DNA of 64,000 nucleotides from Smithellaceae bacterium (GTDB lineage: Bacteria; Desulfobacterota; Syntrophia; Syntrophales; Smithellaceae). The translations under genes and the position numbers were made by a program. Positions 34,681-52,027 of this stretch are shown in pieces. Where the stretch lies: the NCBI GenBank assembly GCA_049514435.1, contig JBEKVB010000003.1, positions 72,131 through 136,130 of the forward strand, read 5' to 3'. How positions within the stretch are numbered: the first letter of the stretch is position 1; each line of letters starts with the position of its first letter. The notes beneath the pieces are model-generated. The model was not told the origin of the DNA. It saw nothing but the letters and a program-made list of their open reading frames with translations, and did not search any database.

Positions 34681-35844
34681 TTAATAAATAAATATCTTAA
34701 CTTCTTTCATAAACGAATATGTTAATATTTTTCCGTCTTTTGTGCGAATCTTTACCATGTCACCGCTAAAACTGATTACTTGTCCTTCAATGACATTCCC
34801 GTTCTGTAATTCTATTCCCTTTAGCCCCTCTATTGCTTGGTAATGCTTTTCTGAATCCACCGGACGATTGGTAACTGAGATATCCTTCTTAGGAACTTTT
34901 ACTTTATATTTGCGTAGTCGCGTACTGTTGTTGTCCTTCTTAAATTGATTTAAAAGGGCAATCACAGAATCAGCATCGCCCTCGTTATAAGTCTTCAGCA
35001 GTGAATCTCTCAAACGCCTTGGTTGTTTTTGTATCCACGCCACAATTCTTCCTGAATCCCTTAAATTATCAAAGTCTGGATGAGCGCTTCTTATGGTATT
35101 AAAATGTTTTTCTTTAGCAATTCTTTCTAAATCTTCATTTGAGGTTGGACCAGTTGGTTGATCTGGTACTGGAGCTGGTGCAGGTGCCGGTTGCGCAACG
35201 GGTGCTTCGACTTTAGGAGTCGCTACCGATACTAGCTCTTCCCTTTTGTTTAGGTTTGCAATTGTGAACAGAATGCCAGCGAGTACGATAATAATTAGTA
35301 TAGATATAATGACAGCTTTATTAAGAGTTTTAGCTTTTAGCTTATTTTCTTCTATATGAGGTTTGCCAACTGCTCTTTGCTGTGGTGATAGTCTCGAAAG
35401 AGTTTCTGCTTTTACCTTTCTTTCTTCTATGTGAGGTGTGCTAACTGCACTTTGCTGTGGTGATGGTCTCGAAAGGGTTTCTGTTTTTACCTTTGTTTCC
35501 TCTATGTGAGGTGTGCTAACTGCACTTTGCTGTGATGATGGTCTCGGAGGTGGTTCCTCGGTTATCTTTGAAACTTCTCGCGGCGGAACTTTTTGTTCTA
35601 ATATATTTTGTTTGGCAACTTTAACCGGAGGTAAGGCCATAGTGCAGTGCCAGCATTTTATTGCATCATCTTGAAGCTCTCCATCACAGAATGGACATTT
35701 TTTCATAGAAACTTTTGGCGGCGGAACTTTTTGTTCTGACGTATCTTGCTTGGCAGCTTTAACCTGAGGTAAAGTCATAGTGCAGTGCCGGCATTTTATT
35801 GCATCGTCTTGAATCTCTCCATCACAGAATGGACATTTCTTCAT
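34681..35844 (-). CDS. single-pass membrane protein with duplicated N-terminal zinc ribbons and a triple internal repeat
   Basis: Two copies of KKCPFCDGExQDDAIKCxHCTM, three copies of SRPSPQQSAVSTPHIEExKVK, one TM helix and a conserved-looking C-terminal domain. Likely start is MKKCPF. Confidence 0.65.
   Translation of the reverse strand: MKKCPFCDGEIQDDAIKCRHCTMTLPQVKAAKQDTSEQKVPPPKVSMKKCPFCDGELQDDAIKCWHCTMALPPVKVAKQNILEQKVPPREVSKITEEPPPRPSSQQSAVSTPHIEETKVKTETLSRPSPQQSAVSTPHIEERKVKAETLSRLSPQQRAVGKPHIEENKLKAKTLNKAVIISILIIIVLAGILFTIANLNKREELVSVATPKVEAPVAQPAPAPAPVPDQPTGPTSNEDLERIAKEKHFNTIRSAHPDFDNLRDSGRIVAWIQKQPRRLRDSLLKTYNEGDADSVIALLNQFKKDNNSTRLRKYKVKVPKKDISVTNRPVDSEKHYQAIEGLKGIELQNGNVIEGQVISFSGDMVKIRTKDGKILTYSFMKEVKIFIY
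35330..35550. repeat. intragenic ~66-bp tandem repeat (3 copies)
   Basis: Repeated CGAAAG(A/G)GTTTCTG(C/T)TTTTACCTTT...TCTATGTGAGGTGTGCTAACTGCACTTTGCTGTG units. They encode the PQQSAVSTPHIEE repeats. Confidence 0.8.
35582..35844. repeat. intragenic ~125-bp tandem duplication (zinc-ribbon module)
   Basis: 35582-35706 and 35720-35844 are near-identical (CATAGTGCAGTGCC.GCATTTTATTGCATC.TCTTGAA.CTCTCCATCACAGAATGGACATTT). Confidence 0.8.
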
Positions 35845-35961
35845 CGCTGCTCCTTTAAAACACAAAACCCTGCGCTCTTTTAATAAACTTAGTTTTTCCA
35901 GATGTGTTGAACATCATTATAGCACATTATTTTTTTTAAAAAAGGAGGGAAACAGAGCATC

Positions 35962-36933: not shown

Positions 36934-37051
36934 TCTTCTTATCCTACAGCCTCGCGGCATATAAACCGACGGTGAAAGAAGCAGATAAGCGGCTTTTATT
37001 TTTTGACTGGAATCATTCCAGATTAGATAAGGAAAGGTAAAATAACCATAA

Positions 37052-39295
<2,244 letters not shown>

Positions 39296-40748: not shown

Positions 40749-40889
40749 ATTGTTGAAACTCTAATTCCGAAAGCGAAGCATAACGGAATTGGTAAGTTGA
40801 ACAATCCCGTGAAGCGGAGGGTTTAATACCCCGCAGCTTGCTACGGAATCTGTTTCCAAAGCTTGCTTTGGGGTTCATACCCGTGATTT
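40749..40889. repeat. structured repeat R3, copy a (overlaps the 3' end of the 40841 gene)
   Basis: AAACTCTAATTCCGAAAGCGAA...CGGAATTGGTAAGTTGAACAATCCCG...GGAGGGTTTAATACCCCGCAGC...GCTTTGGGGTTCATACCCGTGATTT. Collinear with 41741-41875. Confidence 0.8.
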
Positions 40890-41716
40890 CTAAAAAGTTT
40901 AATCTGTTCCTGATAGATACTCATCTCTTCAGGAGTGACTTTTTCCAAAACACACTCTTCCACCATATAACTTGTTACTTTATCATCAAATTGTATCCTG
41001 GCGCTGCTGTTCCCGGTCACCTCAAGTGCTACTCTGTCTTTTACATATAAAAGCGTTCGTCCTCCGGATTCCAGTTGATGATAAACCATATTTTTTTTCG
41101 GCGTCGGCAGGCCTATCATTTCAGTGTGTTCTTCAAAGTTCTGACGACCAATTTCCGTTTTAACCCCGTCCACAAGAAATAAAACTACGCCTAAAGGCAT
41201 CATTGTTACCATGCCGGCAACTGTAGTTGTCATACCCACGGCAAAACTCGAATAATCCGTAAATGTTCGGGAACGAAGCTCTAAAGGAGTCAATTTACGA
41301 AATTTCAAAACAATGCGACAGCCATAGAAATCCTTAAAGCTTTCCTCCAACTGATAATATTTTAATGCACGCACAATAAATTCGGAGACATGACCAAGGT
41401 AAAGTTTTTCACCGGGCGGCAATTTTACCGATTCCGGATTAACATCGCGCGACAACTTCAGACAACTGAAAAGTGTATCCTGTGCTCCCGGTTGTGTTGC
41501 GCACCCAGGCAACAGAATCGCATTGATTTCACCTCTGGTGGCACGCGCTTTTACCTCTTCTTCATAAGGGTCCATAGTTCTATCGATATAATTCTGATAA
41601 AATGCACCACACCCTGACAAATTAATAACAAGAATGATGCTGCTCAGCAGTAAAATTACCAATCGTACTGCTGTCTTTTTTGTATTTGGTAAAGAATATA
41701 ATTTATACTTGAGCAT
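40841..41716 (-). CDS. lipoprotein, unknown function
   Basis: 291 aa with lipobox LSGC after a hydrophobic N-terminus. No recognised domain. Confidence 0.6.
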   Translation of the reverse strand: MLKYKLYSLPNTKKTAVRLVILLLSSIILVINLSGCGAFYQNYIDRTMDPYEEEVKARATRGEINAILLPGCATQPGAQDTLFSCLKLSRDVNPESVKLPPGEKLYLGHVSEFIVRALKYYQLEESFKDFYGCRIVLKFRKLTPLELRSRTFTDYSSFAVGMTTTVAGMVTMMPLGVVLFLVDGVKTEIGRQNFEEHTEMIGLPTPKKNMVYHQLESGGRTLLYVKDRVALEVTGNSSARIQFDDKVTSYMVEECVLEKVTPEEMSIYQEQIKLFRNHGYEPQSKLWKQIP

Positions 41717-41740
41717 GGCAGGTTCTACTTATTGGATTTT

Positions 41741-41875
41741 ATTGTAAAACTCCAATTACGAAAGTGAAATCCGGCGCATGCCGGACGAAGCGTATCGGAA
41801 TTGGTAAGTTGAACAATCCCGCAAAGTGGAGGGTATAATACCCCGCAGCGAGCTTTGGGGTTCATACCCGTGATT
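41741..41875. repeat. structured repeat R3, copy b
   Basis: Same blocks as copy a. It has an extra palindromic insert TCCGGCGCATGCCGGA in the first hairpin loop and lacks a 27-bp segment present in copy a. Confidence 0.8.
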
Positions 41876-41916
41876 TAGGGTAAAAAATATATGAATAACG
41901 TCTTTTTGTCAAAAAT

Positions 41917-42237
41917 ATAATGAGACTCGCTGATAATGAGACCCAAGCTTCAGAAACAAAGTGAACTGAAGCTTGCTGGTCGTAATGAGACTCGCTGAAA
42001 ACGAACAAAGTGAAGTTTGAAGAGGAAGTCGAACTATCCAATAGCTAAAGGCTATTGGAAATTAATGAAACTCAAATGTTACAAACACAGTGCAGTAACA
42101 TTTGTTAGTTGAATTATCCCGCCGCAGGCGGAGGATATCGCAGATATCCGTGGTATCCCAAGAAGCGTAGTACCCTGAATAACCTGAAGGTCACCATGGG
42201 GGCATCTACGACGACGTGGGACTTCTACCTTATGTAA
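41917..42237 (-). repeat. modular hairpin array R2, long copy
   Basis: Five modules starting (A)TAATGAGAC or TAATGAAAC. Perfect 9-bp hairpins AAGCTTCAG/CTGAAGCTT, AAATGTTAC/GTAACATTT and CCAATAGC/GCTATTGG. Loops share AAAC-A(A/C)AGTG(A/C)A. Confidence 0.8.
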
Positions 42238-42312
42238 TTTTCCCGATCCATAAGTTCCTCTGCCCAATGAGATGGTTTTGATTATTCTGCAACTAGTCTA
42301 GAAAAAATAGAA
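42238..42312 (-). repeat. promoter/leader repeat R1, copy c
   Basis: TTTTCCCGATCCATAAGTTCCTCTGCCCAATGAGATGGTTTTGATTATTCTGCAACTAGTCTAGAAAAAATAG. Confidence 0.85.
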
Positions 42313-42334
42313 CCATTGTCCTTATTATCCGTCT

Positions 42335-42847
42335 TCATGGTATTTGAAGAGGACGTATCTTTGCTTGAACAAGATTGATTAAAGTTACACAATCATCATA
42401 GAACACATCAATCCGTTTAGCGTCTGTCTCACTCGGGAAATTCATATGAGCGACAACATTTCTTGGTAGTCTTAGCTCTTCAATGCCGAGCATCCATTTG
42501 TCCAAATCAGGGATTACTGGAATAAAAAGATTTGCGTTGGCACGGATTATTTCATTAAGGTCTACCAAGTCAATGTAATAAATCCCATGTTTACCGGGTT
42601 TTCCATGCCAAGATTTTTTGAGGTAATTATCTTGAAAGTGCTTTGCCTTTTTTTGGATTTCCTTATCGACGGCAATAATCCACCAATCTGGTGGTATTTG
42701 AACCGACAGCACTGTGTGAATGATGACACGAAATATATTTTCGATACAATACAACTTCCAATATGTTTGGCGTCCAATTAGTTTGCCGCTATTACCAACA
42801 GTACGATAATCAAATGGTGACAAACGAAAGTCTCTTGCAACGGGCAT
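42335..42847 (-). CDS. Swt1-like HEPN-domain protein (putative RNase)
   Basis: 170 aa. N-terminal helix WKLYCIENIFRVIIH and C-terminal R-x4-H motif LRLPRNVVAHMNF. Paralogous to the C-terminal half of 43780..44541. Confidence 0.65.
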   Translation of the reverse strand: MPVARDFRLSPFDYRTVGNSGKLIGRQTYWKLYCIENIFRVIIHTVLSVQIPPDWWIIAVDKEIQKKAKHFQDNYLKKSWHGKPGKHGIYYIDLVDLNEIIRANANLFIPVIPDLDKWMLGIEELRLPRNVVAHMNFPSETDAKRIDVFYDDCVTLINLVQAKIRPLQIP

Positions 42848-42848
42848 A

Positions 42849-43064
42849 TTACTTATTTCTCTTTAGAGATTTTGAAGATTTCTTAGACTTAGACAGAGAA
42901 ACAGCCACCACCGCTGGGTTAGTATCAAGAAACTCAGCAATCTCTATATTAGAAAAACCGGCAATATTAAGTTGGAGAGCTTTCTCCTTTTGTGGCACCC
43001 CTTCCATCGATTGTAGCAGAAGGAGAACTAGTAATCGTTCGATTCTATCTGTTGATGATTCCAT
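42849..43064 (-). CDS. mini-HTH protein, paralog 1 (sigma-70 region-4/LuxR-like HTH + basic tail)
   Basis: 71 aa, LNIAGFSNIEIAEFLDTNPAVVAVSL followed by KSKKSSKSLKRNK. Stop is 1 nt before the HEPN start. Confidence 0.65.
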   Translation of the reverse strand: MESSTDRIERLLVLLLLQSMEGVPQKEKALQLNIAGFSNIEIAEFLDTNPAVVAVSLSKSKKSSKSLKRNK

Positions 43065-43066
43065 TA

Positions 43067-43288
43067 TTATCTCCGTTTCTTGGTTTTTCGTCTGAGGTTA
43101 GATGTAAGAGTTCTAACCGTCTCTATTGACGTATTTAAGACATCTGCGATAGCTTGATTCTCGAGGCCTGCAAGTTTTAATAATCGTGCTCGTTCTGTTA
43201 TACTCTTGTCGACCCCAACCTGAATACTCATCACTTGAAGTATTTGTGTAAGTTTTTCTAGAATTTGTTCGTCGATTGATTTAGACAT
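43067..43288 (-). CDS. mini-HTH protein, paralog 2
   Basis: 73 aa, LLKLAGLENQAIADVLNTSIETVRTL followed by RRKTKKRR. 2-nt gap to the next gene. Confidence 0.65.
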   Translation of the reverse strand: MSKSIDEQILEKLTQILQVMSIQVGVDKSITERARLLKLAGLENQAIADVLNTSIETVRTLTSNLRRKTKKRR

Positions 43289-43293
43289 AATAA

Positions 43294-43542
43294 TTACTCC
43301 TGTTTTATTTTCTTTTTTGAATAGAGATACGGTGAGACATCTGTAGCAGATTTTTTGCCAAGTATTTTAGCAATATCGGTTGGTGTAAGTCCAGAAGACT
43401 TCAAAATCCGCGCCGCCGAGGGCTCGCTAAAGCCATTCTCTCCTTTGTTAATCTCAATAAATAACCTAAGAAGTGCATCAAGTCGCATTACAATTGCATC
43501 TCGTTGGTCAGAAGATTCCTTTTTCATTATCGTACTCTCCAT
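43294..43542 (-). CDS. mini-HTH protein, paralog 3
   Basis: 82 aa, ILKSSGLTPTDIAKILGKKSATDV followed by YSKKKIKQE. First gene after the conserved promoter at 43654-43693. Confidence 0.65.
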   Translation of the reverse strand: MESTIMKKESSDQRDAIVMRLDALLRLFIEINKGENGFSEPSAARILKSSGLTPTDIAKILGKKSATDVSPYLYSKKKIKQE

Positions 43543-43653
43543 ATTTTATGATCGCACCCGGTATAACGGAGCGGCGACCGAACAACGTTTACATGTATCT
43601 TGTACCAAGGGTCTTCGCTCCTCTGCTTTGCGGAATTGGAGTTTCACGAAAAT

Positions 43654-43693
43654 CACGTGCTTAAATATACTCGCAATTTTCTTGATTTCAATT
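43654..43693 (-). promoter_or_regulatory. conserved sigma-70-type promoter module R5, copy 1
   Basis: Minus strand TTGAAA (43691-43686), 16 nt spacer, TATATT (43669-43664), embedded in a 40-nt block. The block is near-identical to 51988-52027 and partly to 47238-47260. Confidence 0.6.
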
Positions 43694-43779
43694 ATCTTTT
43701 GTCATCGACGCGTGTTTTTGCAGCATGTCTCCCAGAATTTGGCCTTGATTAAATAAAACCGTCCCCATTATTCACCCAA

Positions 43780-44541
43780 TCATAACTTGAACATCATAGC
43801 TATTTCTCTAGCCCGTGACTCTACGAGCCCTCTATTTGTCTTATCCAGATATATGCAATGAGCAACATAGTTTCTCGAAGGCAAAATTTTCTTGAATGTA
43901 TTAATAAAACTACTTTTATCTTGTTCTTTTAGAGTTGGTAAAACATCTTTCCAGTTTTTATTTGATGTAATTATTTGAAAAAGATGACCTAATGTAACAC
44001 AATCCAAATCATCTTTTCTTTTATTATGTGTGTAATATGGTTCATTTTTTGCTCTTTTGATATCTTTTTTTATGTTATCATCTAACCTGTTATCCATCCA
44101 GCCTTTCTCATTCCCGAATGTAGAACGTAATAAATTTCTCAATGTATTTTCCAAACAAAAAATAACCCTGTAAGCCTCCATCATTTCCCCAGCTTCTTTA
44201 TAATGGCTTAATGGTTTTAACGGATTGATTGACCTTGTTCCTTCATTTGAAAATCCTTTTCTAGGACTTAAAGAATCTGTAAATTTTACTTTGGCCATTC
44301 GATAAAGATTTTGACCTTTGATCTCGTTTGTCTTTTTCCATTTACCGTCGGCTTTGATAATATAACCGTAACCTTTTGCACGATTAAGAATTGTACTAAC
44401 TGTAGTACTAGCTATACCAACAGCACTCGATATTTCGTGATGGTTTTTGCTTTTTGCCGAATTTAGAACATCAATCGCTTTTTTATGAATAGAAAGCAGC
44501 GCTTGAAGATTTGACGTAAGCTCTTCTGCGTTAGAAGACAT
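43780..44541 (-). CDS. winged-HTH + Swt1-like HEPN fusion protein
   Basis: 253 aa. N-terminal wHTH HHEISSAVGIASTTVSTILNRAKGYGYIIK. C-terminal LENTLRNLLRS helix and R-x4-H motif LPSRNYVAHCIYL. Confidence 0.65.
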   Translation of the reverse strand: MSSNAEELTSNLQALLSIHKKAIDVLNSAKSKNHHEISSAVGIASTTVSTILNRAKGYGYIIKADGKWKKTNEIKGQNLYRMAKVKFTDSLSPRKGFSNEGTRSINPLKPLSHYKEAGEMMEAYRVIFCLENTLRNLLRSTFGNEKGWMDNRLDDNIKKDIKRAKNEPYYTHNKRKDDLDCVTLGHLFQIITSNKNWKDVLPTLKEQDKSSFINTFKKILPSRNYVAHCIYLDKTNRGLVESRAREIAMMFKL

Positions 44542-44802
44542 CTAGATCACCTTCCTATAACCTTTTCCTTCTTTAATTAAGATTCCTTCTGATTCTAATT
44601 TTTTCCACAAATTAATAATTGTACTTGCACTTGTTTTTACTTCTTTGCTTATTTCCCTTTGCCCTTTGATCCCGGTCAAATCATAAATTTTTCTTTCCTG
44701 TGAACTCAATTCCTTTATACTTTCTGAAATGTTTTGTTTAACCAAAAACTCCATCATCTCCCTTATTTTTTTGATGTCTTGGTCATTTATTCTCTCTTCC
44801 AT
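44542..44802 (-). CDS. small winged-HTH protein
   Basis: 86 aa, GQREISKEVKTSASTIINLWKKLESEGILIKEGKGYRKV. Its stop abuts the start of the HEPN fusion gene. Confidence 0.6.
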   Translation of the reverse strand: MEERINDQDIKKIREMMEFLVKQNISESIKELSSQERKIYDLTGIKGQREISKEVKTSASTIINLWKKLESEGILIKEGKGYRKVI

Positions 44803-44943
44803 CCTTCCATTTGCCTTGGGTTTCTCACACCAACTAAAATAGCAATATCTTCCGAGGTCAACCCAAGGTTCTTGAGCGCATACACTTGGTCGTTTTTATC
44901 CTTTAAATTTTGGATTGTAAGTACTACCAATGAACATAAGAAG

Positions 44944-45273
44944 CTATGAGTCTATTTCTTCTTTCCCTTTTTTCTTCATCGACTCCGGTATCGGATAAAG
45001 ATGAAGAATTTTTGCATTTTTCTCAGGACCGATCTGAAATGCAACACCACTCGCAACCCAACGCTTCACTGCCTTGCTTAAGTTGCTGTGATCAATTTTG
45101 CATTTCGTGGCGATTTCGCGTTGCGTTGCTCCGCCGTCACATAAATTGAATGCTTTCACGTATTCTGGTGATGTACAAACAATCTTCTCCACCTTATCCA
45201 CGGGAATGGCAATGCTCCCAACTACTTGAATCAAAATTTTAAGCAAAGGTTCTAGCTTTTCATTATCATCCAT
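44944..45273 (-). CDS. small winged-HTH protein
   Basis: 109 aa, GATQREIATKCKIDHSNLSKAVKRWVASGVAFQIG. Confidence 0.6.
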   Translation of the reverse strand: MDDNEKLEPLLKILIQVVGSIAIPVDKVEKIVCTSPEYVKAFNLCDGGATQREIATKCKIDHSNLSKAVKRWVASGVAFQIGPEKNAKILHLYPIPESMKKKGKEEIDS

Positions 45274-45371
45274 TTTTTGCCTCCTTTGAGGAATTTTACG
45301 AGCAAAAGACTTTCTTACAATTACCTAAAGAAGATACTTTTCTTTAAAAACACGATATTTACCGCCAACTA

Positions 45372-45632
45372 TTAGGACGCTGATTTCTCAGAAACTACTT
45401 TCTTCGCTTTTCCTTTTTGTTTCCTTATAGCGAATAACATGACTCGCACGGTGTTTGGCGAAGTGCCAAGCATATTTGCAATTTCCTTCGGCTGTAATCC
45501 TGCATGTGATAACATCCAAATAAGCTCAGACTGGTTTTTGTTTTCAGATTTAAAAAGAACCATCAATTTGATGATTGCATCTAATTTGGAATTCAAAGAT
45601 ATAATCAGGTTTTGTAATACTTTGTCATTCAT
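45372..45632 (-). CDS. mini-HTH protein, paralog 4
   Basis: 86 aa, MLSHAGLQPKEIANMLGTSPNTVRVML followed by RKQKGKAKK. Overlaps the upstream paralog by 8 nt. Confidence 0.65.
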   Translation of the reverse strand: MNDKVLQNLIISLNSKLDAIIKLMVLFKSENKNQSELIWMLSHAGLQPKEIANMLGTSPNTVRVMLFAIRKQKGKAKKVVSEKSAS

Positions 45633-45867
45633 TGTTGGCTTTCCCTTTCGTCATCCTCGTTTTTCTTTGTGATAGCGTTGCAGTTACGTAGTTTGCTGGC
45701 TTACCAAGAATCCTCGCGATATCCGCTGGAGACACCCCAATCTTGTTCAGCTTAACTATTTTCTCAGCCATCGAGAGGCCATCCTTTTCTCCAGCATCAA
45801 GACCCAATGCTATCAAAATATTCAACCTCTTGACAATTTCATCAATTGTCTTTTCATTTTTTTCCAT
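45625..45867 (-). CDS. mini-HTH protein, paralog 5
   Basis: 80 aa, KLNKIGVSPADIARILGKPANYVTATL followed by QRKTRMTKGK. GGAGGG RBS. Confidence 0.65.
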   Translation of the reverse strand: MEKNEKTIDEIVKRLNILIALGLDAGEKDGLSMAEKIVKLNKIGVSPADIARILGKPANYVTATLSQRKTRMTKGKANNE

Positions 45868-45894
45868 TGTTCCCTCCAGTTAATAGCATGGCTA

Positions 45895-45931
45895 ATGCTA
45901 TCATTCTTTCAACATACTGTCAATACAGTAT
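45895..45931 (-). promoter_or_regulatory. sigma-70-type promoter overlapped by an inverted repeat (candidate operator)
   Basis: Minus strand TTGACA (45923-45918), 17 nt spacer, TAGCAT (45900-45895). The inverted repeat ATACTGT-N4-ACAGTAT at 45914-45931 covers the -35. Confidence 0.5.
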
Positions 45932-46096
45932 TTTTAATATAGATCATTAAGCAATTGTTTTATTTTTTTCAAGCAGGTAGGTTAATCTGGAGGTCTAAGT
46001 TATTCTGGACAATTATATTTTTCTATACATATCTATTTGAAGCGTCCGCAATATTCATTTAATTTTTCGCTACATCTCACCTTCTATTTCATATCC

Positions 46097-47230: not shown

Positions 47231-47237
47231 TAATAAT

Positions 47238-47260
47238 CATGTGCTTAAATATACTCGCAA
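47238..47260 (-). repeat. partial copy of promoter module R5 (copy 2, -10 half only)
   Basis: CATGTGCTTAAATATACTCGCAA matches the -10-proximal half of the 43654 and 51988 modules. Confidence 0.7.
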
Positions 47261-47268
47261 GGGGTTGA

Positions 47269-47580
47269 TCAGCAGGATAGCGTTTCAGCCATAACCGCTC
47301 GTTTGGCCTTTTTCCAGTCTGCCGATTTATGAGAAACTTTCCATAAATCATGATTGCTCTGCATATTCAGCCAAAGCTCAGGTGTCGTATTGAACGTTAC
47401 CGACAGACGTAAAGCCATATCCGGTGTGACAGCTCCACGCCTATTGATGATTTTAGAAACCGTCTTGCGTGATACATTCAACATGCCGGACAGGGCAGAA
47501 ATGTTGAGATTAAGCGGTTCAAGATAATGTTCTTTCAGAATTACGCCCGGGTGAACAGGCTGTCTCTTTTTTGCTCTCAT
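47269..47580 (-). CDS. higA: HigA-family antitoxin (XRE HTH)
   Basis: N-terminus KRQPVHPGVILKEHYLEPLNLNISALSGMLNVSRKTVSKIINRR is typical of HigA. Downstream of the toxin gene, as in higBA. Confidence 0.88.
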   Translation of the reverse strand: MRAKKRQPVHPGVILKEHYLEPLNLNISALSGMLNVSRKTVSKIINRRGAVTPDMALRLSVTFNTTPELWLNMQSNHDLWKVSHKSADWKKAKRAVMAETLSC

Positions 47581-47591
47581 TGTTGTTACCT

Positions 47592-47870
47592 CTAATGATA
47601 ATCTTCATAATTTGTTTCATAGGCAGCACCTTCAAGAAACCTAAACGTTATTCGCCAGTTTCCGGAAACTTTTATTGCCCATCTGTTGTCAGCTTTTGGC
47701 TCCAGTAAATGTAAATACGAACCAGGATAGTTCATGTCACGAATTTCATTTGCCGCATCAAGCCGATCCAAAATAGCGGCAAGCTTCTTCTCATGCTTCG
47801 GCTGTATTCCCTTTTTCGTCCCTTCATAGAAAAAATCTTCCAGCCCTTTATGCATGAATGATTTGATCAT
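47592..47870 (-). CDS. higB: HigB-type toxin (RelE/ParE superfamily, plasmid maintenance system killer)
   Basis: 92 aa. MIKSFMHKGLEDFFYEGTKKGIQPKH and GNWRITFRF motifs are typical of HigB. Confidence 0.88.
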   Translation of the reverse strand: MIKSFMHKGLEDFFYEGTKKGIQPKHEKKLAAILDRLDAANEIRDMNYPGSYLHLLEPKADNRWAIKVSGNWRITFRFLEGAAYETNYEDYH

Positions 47871-51980: not shown

Positions 51981-51987
51981 AAAAAAC

Positions 51988-52027
51988 CACATGCTTAAAT
52001 ATACTCGCAATTTTCTTTATTTCAATT
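51988..52027 (-). promoter_or_regulatory. conserved sigma-70-type promoter module R5, copy 3
   Basis: Minus strand TTGAAA (52025-52020), 16 nt spacer, TATATT (52003-51998). The 40-nt block is near-identical to 43654-43693. Confidence 0.6.

Follow-up and report, generated by a model that had tools for sequence, protein, structure and literature searches.

This work concerns a 64,000-nucleotide (nt) stretch of a Smithellaceae genome (assembly GCA_049514435.1, contig JBEKVB010000003.1, positions 72,131 to 136,130), hereafter the window, and within it an island of 3.6 kb (42335-45931) in which genes for two HEPN proteins lie among genes for small helix-turn-helix (HTH) proteins. All nine genes are on the minus strand and they form two separate conserved cassettes in tandem. 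Cassette A (45867-43780) encodes, from 5' to 3', two very small HTH proteins that we call mini-HTHs (m5 and m4), two small winged-HTH (wHTH) proteins (wHTH-109 and wHTH-86) and a fusion of a wHTH to a HEPN domain. Cassette B (43542-42335) starts 237 nt after the end of cassette A and encodes three further mini-HTHs (m3, m2 and m1) followed by a stand-alone HEPN protein of 170 amino acids (aa), HEPN170 (Table 1). An earlier annotation of this DNA, hereafter the original prediction, had listed nine minus-strand open reading frames (ORFs), all of which we found again at the same positions, and had taken them for a single HEPN and HTH array with a role in genetic conflict. The gene content was as described, but the array proved to consist of two distinct, individually conserved cassettes placed side by side; the interpretation as a conflict system is supported in outline.

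Table 1. Genes and promoter-like regions of the island, in the direction of transcription (positions in the window)
Feature	Position	Strand	Description
P1, promoter-like region of cassette A	45883-45937	-	TTGACA (45923-45918)-17-TAGCAT (45900-45895); consensus scan
m5	45625-45867	-	80-aa mini-HTH: amphipathic N-helix, LuxR/sigma-r4-like HTH, basic tail; family profile E 3e-23; weak HTH_23 and Sigma70_r4_2 matches; isoelectric point (pI) 9.7
m4	45372-45632	-	86-aa mini-HTH, 8-nt overlap with m5; family profile E 3e-26; Sigma70_r4_2 E 2.3e-5, 24.4 bits vs cutoff 25.7
wHTH-109	44944-45273	-	MarR/ArsR-like winged HTH; MarR_2 E 1.6e-5
47-aa ORF	44787-44930	-	TTG start; between wHTH-109 and wHTH-86; HTH-like, mini-HTH-like core LKNLGLTSEDIAILVG
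wHTH-86	44542-44802	-	winged HTH; stop abuts start of fusion HEPN gene (0-nt gap)
wHTH::HEPN fusion	43780-44541	-	253 aa; motifs E131-N132-x2-R135 and R223-N-Y-V-A-H228
P2, promoter-like region of cassette B	43651-43691	-	TTGAAA-16-TATATT (43691-43664); consensus scan
m3	43294-43542	-	third, accessory mini-HTH of cassette B; first ATG gives 82 aa; family profile E 7e-21
m2	43067-43288	-	73 aa, distal core mini-HTH of cassette B; GerE E 1.7e-4, 21.6 bits vs cutoff 23.5
m1	42849-43064	-	71 aa, proximal core mini-HTH of cassette B; stop 1 nt before HEPN170 start
HEPN170	42335-42847	-	170 aa, stand-alone Swt1/Abi2-clade HEPN, predicted RNase effector; motifs E36-N37-x2-R40 and R129-N-V-V-A-H134

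The genes had been described as tightly packed, with gaps or overlaps of 0-5 nt. This is the case in cassette B, where the successive gaps measure 5 nt (m3-m2), 2 nt (m2-m1) and 1 nt (m1-HEPN170), and at two junctions of cassette A, the 8-nt overlap of m5 and m4 and the direct contact of wHTH-86 with the fusion gene, but not between m4 and wHTH-109 (98 nt) or between wHTH-109 and wHTH-86 (141 nt). The latter gap holds a 47-aa ORF with a TTG start that had been overlooked. This ORF occupies the slot of a small 57-66-aa gene in two homologous operons, L006 and L012 (related loci carry L numbers here); it has no match to the mini-HTH profile described below and no visible Shine-Dalgarno sequence. 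It may be a decayed or very divergent mini-HTH gene, an assignment that we regard as uncertain. The start of m3 is probably the ATG at 43527, which is preceded by GGAG and would yield a protein of 77 aa, the length also given by public gene calls. The guanine-cytosine (GC) content of the island genes is 31-41%, vs ~44% in most of the window.

Both large proteins belong to one HEPN family of the Swt1/Abi2 clade, an assignment that sequence and motif support well. Profile searches had been expected to return HEPN_Swt1 or an Abi-type HEPN, and at the family level this is what we observed: HEPN_Swt1 (PF18731) is the sole Pfam family matched by the HEPN170 family (9/25 members, best E 3.1e-4) and the top one for the fusion family (10/19 members, best E 1.8e-6), and a precomputed PF18731 match exists for one homologue. 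The PADLOC profile PDC-M34B (PDLC04592) matches both window proteins, HEPN170 with an E value of 4.9e-27 and the fusion with 4.7e-17 over residues 112-236, and the two families are homologous to each other (hhalign probability 96.3%, E 1.5e-9). The original prediction had also pointed to an (I/L)EN..R helix and an R-x4-H motif in both proteins. The corresponding E-N-x2-R and R-N-x3-H motifs are conserved across homologues: E36, N37, R40, R129, N130 and H134 are invariant in 25 sequences of the HEPN170 family, as are E131, N132, R135, R223 and H228 in 19 sequences of the fusion family, in which N224 is kept in at least 90%. The AlphaFold2 (AF2) model of HEPN170 is all-alpha, with a predicted local distance difference test (pLDDT) score of 89.8, and its best Foldseek matches in the PDB, although weak, are the HEPN domains of Csm6 (E 0.26-3.8, TM 0.38-0.43). 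Sequence searches found no homologue of solved structure. As the structure search was not decisive, HEPN membership rests on sequence and motif and is not proven by fold.

The AF2 model of the fusion (pLDDT 79.9) consists of a wHTH (residues ~5-70), a disordered basic linker (~80-102) and an all-alpha HEPN domain (~114-249), and its wHTH matches the wHTH of IclR/MarR structures locally, with a root-mean-square deviation (rmsd) of 1.3-1.5 Å over 56-59 residues. Over the whole chain, the top Foldseek matches of the fusion are FadR/GntR-type regulators (E 0.015-0.1). One could imagine that the island is the regulatory section of an integrated or degraded mobile element, with small HTH proteins that are ordinary transcription factors and large proteins that are regulators without catalytic activity, HEPN-like or FadR-like (a wHTH joined to an all-alpha ligand-binding domain). 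The Pfam matches of the window HEPN proteins themselves are sub-threshold, integrase genes lie near two related loci, and some HEPN domains, such as that of MtlR, are non-catalytic regulators according to the 2013 HEPN survey (Anantharaman et al., 2013; PMC3710099). However, the FadR-type matches have a TM of 0.16-0.19 and an rmsd of 17-22 Å, values at which they are not meaningful. The two motifs are, N224 apart, invariant across phyla and domains in both families, as expected of an active site. Moreover, the cassette occurs alone, unaccompanied by other element genes, at many unrelated chromosomal sites, and the window ORFs that were annotated, those from 34.7 to 51.9 kb, include no integrase. 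We consider it very unlikely that these proteins are simply regulators of a mobile element.

The five proteins of 71-86 aa had been called genuine paralogues, and our comparisons agree. Pairwise BLASTP among them gives E values of 1e-4 to 1e-7, and a hidden Markov model (HMM) built from 17 members of the mini-HTH family and run on the whole window matches exactly m1-m5 and nothing else (E 5e-23 to 1.5e-26). The window proteins fall slightly under the Pfam cutoffs of GerE (PF00196; 21.6 vs 23.5) and Sigma70_r4_2 (PF08281; 24.4 vs 25.7). Among 56 family members, Sigma70_r4_2 is matched by 26 and GerE by 19, and homologues are annotated by JGI as CsgD/NarL/FixJ-type DNA-binding proteins. The predicted fold of the mini-HTHs is the HTH of LuxR/GerE and of sigma-70 region 4. 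Orthologues from WOR-3 are 86% (m2) and 65% (m1) identical to the window proteins, and orthologues of m3 with the same C-terminal 'KKSATxVAPYLYxKK' are encoded in the closest relatives (L014, L015, L017 and L019). Two apparent Rosetta-stone fusions of m2 with m1 (P0140 and P0141) were set aside, as they look like frameshifted or merged gene calls. We also observed a further family of HTH-like proteins of 58-62 aa ('...KIVGCxMNRxNxxxKHxxK'), mostly missed by the mini-HTH HMM, whose genes often precede the arrays in Acidobacteriota and other loci inspected (L047, 1525-1909; just upstream of m2 in L028 and L031-L034). Candidate effectors are encoded between these genes and the m2-m1-HEPN trio, namely a Hypoth_Ymh HEPN in L040 and proteins in L026, L039, L047 and L054.

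The original prediction had proposed that mini-HTH and HEPN genes should occur together in other genomes, and for cassette B they do so in every complete related locus that we examined. A scan of one genome per species yielded 45 loci related to HEPN170, 44 of them complete, in Acidobacteriota, Ignavibacteria, WOR-3, Chloroflexota, groups of the candidate phyla radiation (CPR), Nitrospirota, Myxococcota, Bathyarchaeia and others. Mini-HTH genes stand directly upstream of the HEPN170 gene in all 44 complete loci, at -8 to +49 nt from its start. The order is an m2-type gene, then an m1-type gene, then HEPN in 43 of them, the remaining one having m2 only; a minority carry extra upstream mini-HTH genes, up to five in L036. 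The partners have also diverged together, with Mantel correlations to HEPN of 0.72 for m2 and 0.65 for m1 that none of 2000 permutations equalled. The minimal unit is the three-gene set m2-m1-HEPN170, of ~1.2 kb. In L058 (4001-4440) the HEPN170 gene is frameshifted and the m2 and m1 genes upstream are intact. The tandem arrangement of the window has a second, similar case in L021 (1469-2281), an archaeal contig, where two more mini-HTH genes follow m2-m1-HEPN170 and are themselves followed by a gene, cut by the contig end, whose wHTH product is similar to the N-terminus of the fusion.

Cassette A is conserved in its own right. In nine further distinct loci of the fusion family, an orthologue of wHTH-86 (55-66% identity) is encoded immediately upstream of the fusion HEPN (9/9), making wHTH-86 its obligate partner. 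One to four mini-HTH genes lie upstream in eight of these loci, and the contig of the ninth ends 324 nt upstream of wHTH-86. By comparison, wHTH-109 is an optional member: L009, L010 and L068 have a homologue in the equivalent operon slot, and L068 has the same gene order as the window. Several fusion loci have archaeal neighbours and archaeal BRE/TATA-like promoters, and a Nanoarchaeota copy only 36% identical still keeps the order mini-mini-wHTH-HEPN. An exhaustive profile search with the HEPN family returned 1004 clusters at 50% identity (E<=1e-3). Past the 170-aa group, most matches are proteins of 250-275 aa with the domain at the C-terminus, i.e. with the architecture of the fusion. In L012 (3539-12274), a fusion-HEPN operon (79, 73, 57, 82 and 262 aa) is inserted between hsdM and hsdS/hsdR of a type I restriction-modification (R-M) system, next to an integrase gene.

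Promoters had been placed at 45.9 and 43.67 kb, and a consensus scan locates promoter-like sites at both (P1 and P2, Table 1). P1 contains two perfect 7-nt palindromes, ATACTGT-n4-ACAGTAT over the -35 hexamer and ATAGCAT-n5-ATGCTAT over the -10 hexamer, which are candidate operators and hint at autoregulation. P2 includes one of three minus-strand copies of a 26-nt element, TTGCGAGTATATTTAAGCACGTGATT, found with 0-2 mismatches at 43651-43676, 47235-47260 and 51985-52010, where chance would predict 0 copies; the genes downstream of them, all on the minus strand, are different. Two of the copies, those at 43.67 and 52.0 kb, have ~45 nt in common, including -35-like and -10-like hexamers. This element resembles a promoter cassette put to repeated use in this genome, one that now drives cassette B.

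The insertion sites of the trio are unrelated, no Pfam family being found in more than 3 of 150 flanking genes. Related copies sit among PemK, HicAB, BrnT/BrnA and MazE modules, and in the window the higBA pair that the original prediction named as a neighbour is located at 47269-47870, 1.4 kb from the island. In the sister genome L073 (1-18897), whose PAC2 is at least 90% identical, the PAC2 flanks carry a cluster of 401/150/60/804-aa proteins with an SMC_N/AAA_23 ATPase, together with Fic and AbiEii, and not this island. This difference from the window indicates a variable neighbourhood with many conflict genes. Together with the low GC content of the island, these observations suggest that the cassettes are horizontally mobile.

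The arrangement had been regarded as unfamiliar, and our full-text literature search found no description of an operon combining a HEPN gene with a mini-HTH set. The HEPN component is nevertheless not wholly unknown, since its family is already listed in PADLOC as candidate PDC-M34B. PDC-M34 corresponds to cassette CAS_00130 (FAM_01148>>FAM_01657) and is an untested candidate picked by 'guilt-by-embedding', its source being genes located inside type I R-M, BREX or DISARM systems (Payne et al., bioRxiv 10.1101/2024.01.29.577857). Its B component is homologous to both window HEPN proteins, and its derivation from embedded genes recalls the position of L012 inside a type I R-M system. In contrast, no R-M system surrounds the window copy, and PDC-M34A (FAM_01148) has no match at E<=1 in the nine window proteins and none at E<=0.1 in the 56 mini-HTH family members, so that the partner genes here differ from those of PDC-M34.

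Other known systems share some of these features. HEPN-MNT systems (HepT-MntA) combine, as proposed here, in a small mobile operon, an R-x4-6-H HEPN RNase toxin with a neutralising partner encoded upstream, but their partner is a minimal nucleotidyltransferase (MNT) instead of an HTH set and their HEPN belongs to DUF86 and not to the Swt1/Abi2 clade. As originally noted, an MNT is lacking here: none of the nine proteins has a nucleotidyltransferase domain, and NTP_transf_2 occurs in only 2/150 genes flanking homologous loci. Consequently, the cassettes cannot be HEPN-MNT systems and the AMPylation mechanism cannot apply. Abi2 (AbiD/AbiF) and the bacterial Swt1-like proteins belong to the same HEPN clade, whose members are described as often lying inside R-M operons and as joined, in some cases, to a wHTH (Anantharaman et al., 2013; PMC3710099). 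The fusions described for them are, however, to AAA+ ATPases, transmembrane helices or giant helicase/restriction endonuclease proteins, and the passages of that survey consulted here mention no conserved operon in which mini-HTH genes are duplicated.

Tripartite systems of the type II toxin-antitoxin (TA) class, such as omega-epsilon-zeta, PaaR2-PaaA2-ParE2 and HipBST, encode two small upstream proteins, one of them a DNA-binding regulator, and a downstream toxin. The trio reproduces this three-gene layout, with two small proteins upstream and the presumed toxin downstream, but here both small proteins are HTH proteins and paralogues of each other, and the toxin would be a HEPN protein. PrrC (EcoprrI), RnlA-RnlB and LsoA-LsoB also involve HEPN RNase effectors kept latent by protein partners, and PrrC is encoded inside a type I R-M operon, like L012. 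They differ in that PrrC carries a fused ABC ATPase and it is the R-M proteins themselves that mask it, whereas RnlB and LsoB are not HTH proteins. Lastly, the CRISPR-associated models Csa3, CasR and CARF3 have a C-terminal wHTH similar to those of wHTH-86 and of the fusion (E 1.8e-5 to 1e-2, the lowest value being that of wHTH-86 with CasR/Csa3), and the best, though weak, structural matches of HEPN170 are Csm6 HEPN domains. CARF-wHTH and CARF-HEPN proteins, such as Csx1/Csm6, differ from these proteins, which have no CARF domain, and the model matches cover the wHTH part only. A link to CRISPR, considered in view of weak CasR, Csa3 and Cbp1 matches, was rejected: only the wHTH regions align, and Tandem Repeats Finder detected nothing in the window that resembles a CRISPR array. 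Of the ORFs profiled, which were a part of those in the window, none was recognised as a cas gene.

Taken together, we think that the island probably comprises two tandem, self-contained and mobile HEPN-RNase conflict modules of TA-like or abortive-infection (Abi) type, in which the HTH partners would restrain the effector and regulate their own expression. The linkage is of the TA type, with small partners encoded directly upstream of the effector, both at the tight junctions of the window and in the 44 complete loci, diverging along with it and found at unrelated sites. The effector would be a HEPN protein of the Swt1/Abi2 clade, predicted to act as a dimeric, metal-independent endoRNase through its R-N-x3-H site, and would be co-transcribed and translationally coupled with its dedicated small HTH proteins which, being encoded upstream, would by this coupling be made first. 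In cassette B the controllers would be the diverged LuxR/sigma-r4-type pair m2 then m1, with m3 as an accessory; in cassette A they would be the mini-HTHs and the two small wHTH proteins, and the effector carries an N-terminal wHTH of its own. The HTH proteins most likely repress their own promoter, possibly through the palindromes over the -35 and -10 of P1, and most likely keep the RNase inactive by forming a direct complex with it. If they were lost or displaced, be it by phage infection, by proteolysis or because the element is lost, the RNase would be released and the cell arrested. The outcome would be a tripartite or multipartite system resembling type II TA, or an Abi system.

Several observations weigh against two such modules. 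As regards the effector, the Pfam match of HEPN170 to HEPN_Swt1 (E 0.017, 15.8 bits) lies under the curated cutoff of 27.5, HEPN_Swt1 does not match the window fusion protein at all, and Foldseek found no significant match to a solved structure for the models of HEPN170 or the fusion. As regards the partners, all ten encoded proteins, the 47-aa ORF included, are basic (pI 8.1-10.4), so that the pattern of an acidic antitoxin with a basic toxin does not apply. Mean pairwise identity is 0.58 and 0.54 for the mini-HTHs and 0.50 for the HEPN protein, so that the former match or exceed the latter in conservation. Antitoxins as conserved as their toxin, or more so, are unusual, and this conservation suggests that the mini-HTHs have a conserved target of their own. 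No operator motif common to the regions upstream of m2 was seen across the 44 loci, these regions being heterogeneous and often coding. As regards mobility and defence, the flanking genes are mostly housekeeping genes and most of the 44 loci lie outside recognisable defence islands; phage and IMG/VR collections gave no match to the family, and plasmids gave a single one, a distant HEPN protein with a different architecture.

The basic proteins, the conserved HTH partners and the lack of a shared operator leave room for another explanation, which we judge rather unlikely: the island could be a dedicated anti-phage system, its HTH proteins serving as sensors or adaptors and not as antitoxins. 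A hetero-oligomer of mini-HTH and wHTH proteins could bind DNA or a phage component and thereby license or position the HEPN RNase, for instance to cut transcripts issued from bound foreign DNA, possibly in conjunction with R-M. The homology of the HEPN family to PDC-M34B, with its origin in genes embedded in R-M, BREX and DISARM systems, is consistent with such a role, and so is the location of one fusion-HEPN operon between hsdM and hsdS/hsdR. All partners are of a nucleic acid-binding type and the effector has a wHTH of its own, attached through a disordered basic linker, while the strong conservation of the HTH partners would fit an external target that is itself conserved. Furthermore, mini-HTH arrays also precede other effectors, such as the Hypoth_Ymh HEPN of L040, which matches PD-Lambda-3_B, and in the sister genome the place beside PAC2 is taken by Fic, AbiEii and the SMC-like ATPase cluster, not by the island. 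Nevertheless, the general location of the loci away from recognisable defence islands and the absence of the A partner of PDC-M34 argue against this explanation, for which no trigger or target can be named. It should be added that the TA and anti-phage readings overlap, since many TA systems act as Abi systems.

The surroundings of the island present some further features. The 618 non-coding nt downstream of HEPN170 (41717-42334) fold far better than shuffled sequences (z = -6.0), with several perfect hairpins as well as a direct repeat of 22 nt (at 41918 and 41983), and have no Rfam match. An RNA antitoxin or other known non-coding RNA was considered and rejected: Rfam gave only chance-level matches over 41.6-46.2 kb, and the 22-nt repeat is limited to two copies. 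In the other loci inspected, unrelated genes follow HEPN. Two repeat blocks (40774-40889 and 41786-41876; 88% identical over 69 nt and 93% over 30 nt) flank a gene for a 291-aa protein with no Pfam match (40841-41716). The repeats at 40774-40842 and 41786-41854 looked attC-like, but an integron cassette was discarded, the core motif having only two copies in the window and integrase genes being absent from the annotated ORFs mentioned above. Further away, the katG gene (catalase-peroxidase) lies in a segment (37001-39000) with a GC content of 60-62%, which suggests a separate horizontal acquisition, and a 394-aa zinc-ribbon ORF (34681-35865) contains tandem repeats (35323-35844), three units of 75 nt and two of 138 nt with 86-89% matches.

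HEPN RNases are the killing or arresting part of many immune and addiction systems (Cas13, Csm6, HepT, RnlA, PrrC), and a key mechanistic question is how each of them is kept silent. The cassettes described here define a type of partner of which our literature search found no description, namely duplicated mini-HTH proteins encoded in a fixed order, and this partner is tied strictly to a single HEPN clade in Bacteria as well as in Archaea. More speculatively, and with a good deal of doubt on our part, the mini-HTHs could represent an unrecognised cross-domain class of modular control units that, in arrays of one to five and often with small wHTH proteins, assemble on nucleic acid to gate interchangeable effectors. 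The effectors seen with mini-HTH arrays comprise two Swt1-like HEPN architectures and one Ymh-type HEPN, and possibly nuclease-like proteins in other loci. Such a class would amount to a new defence family with multi-HTH licensing, distinct from classical neutralisation by an antitoxin. The m2-m1-HEPN170 unit is simple to clone. If the HTH proteins do turn out to be sensors or licensing factors, this would reveal a new control logic for HEPN effectors and would explain a 'hypothetical' cassette that recurs in environmental genomes.

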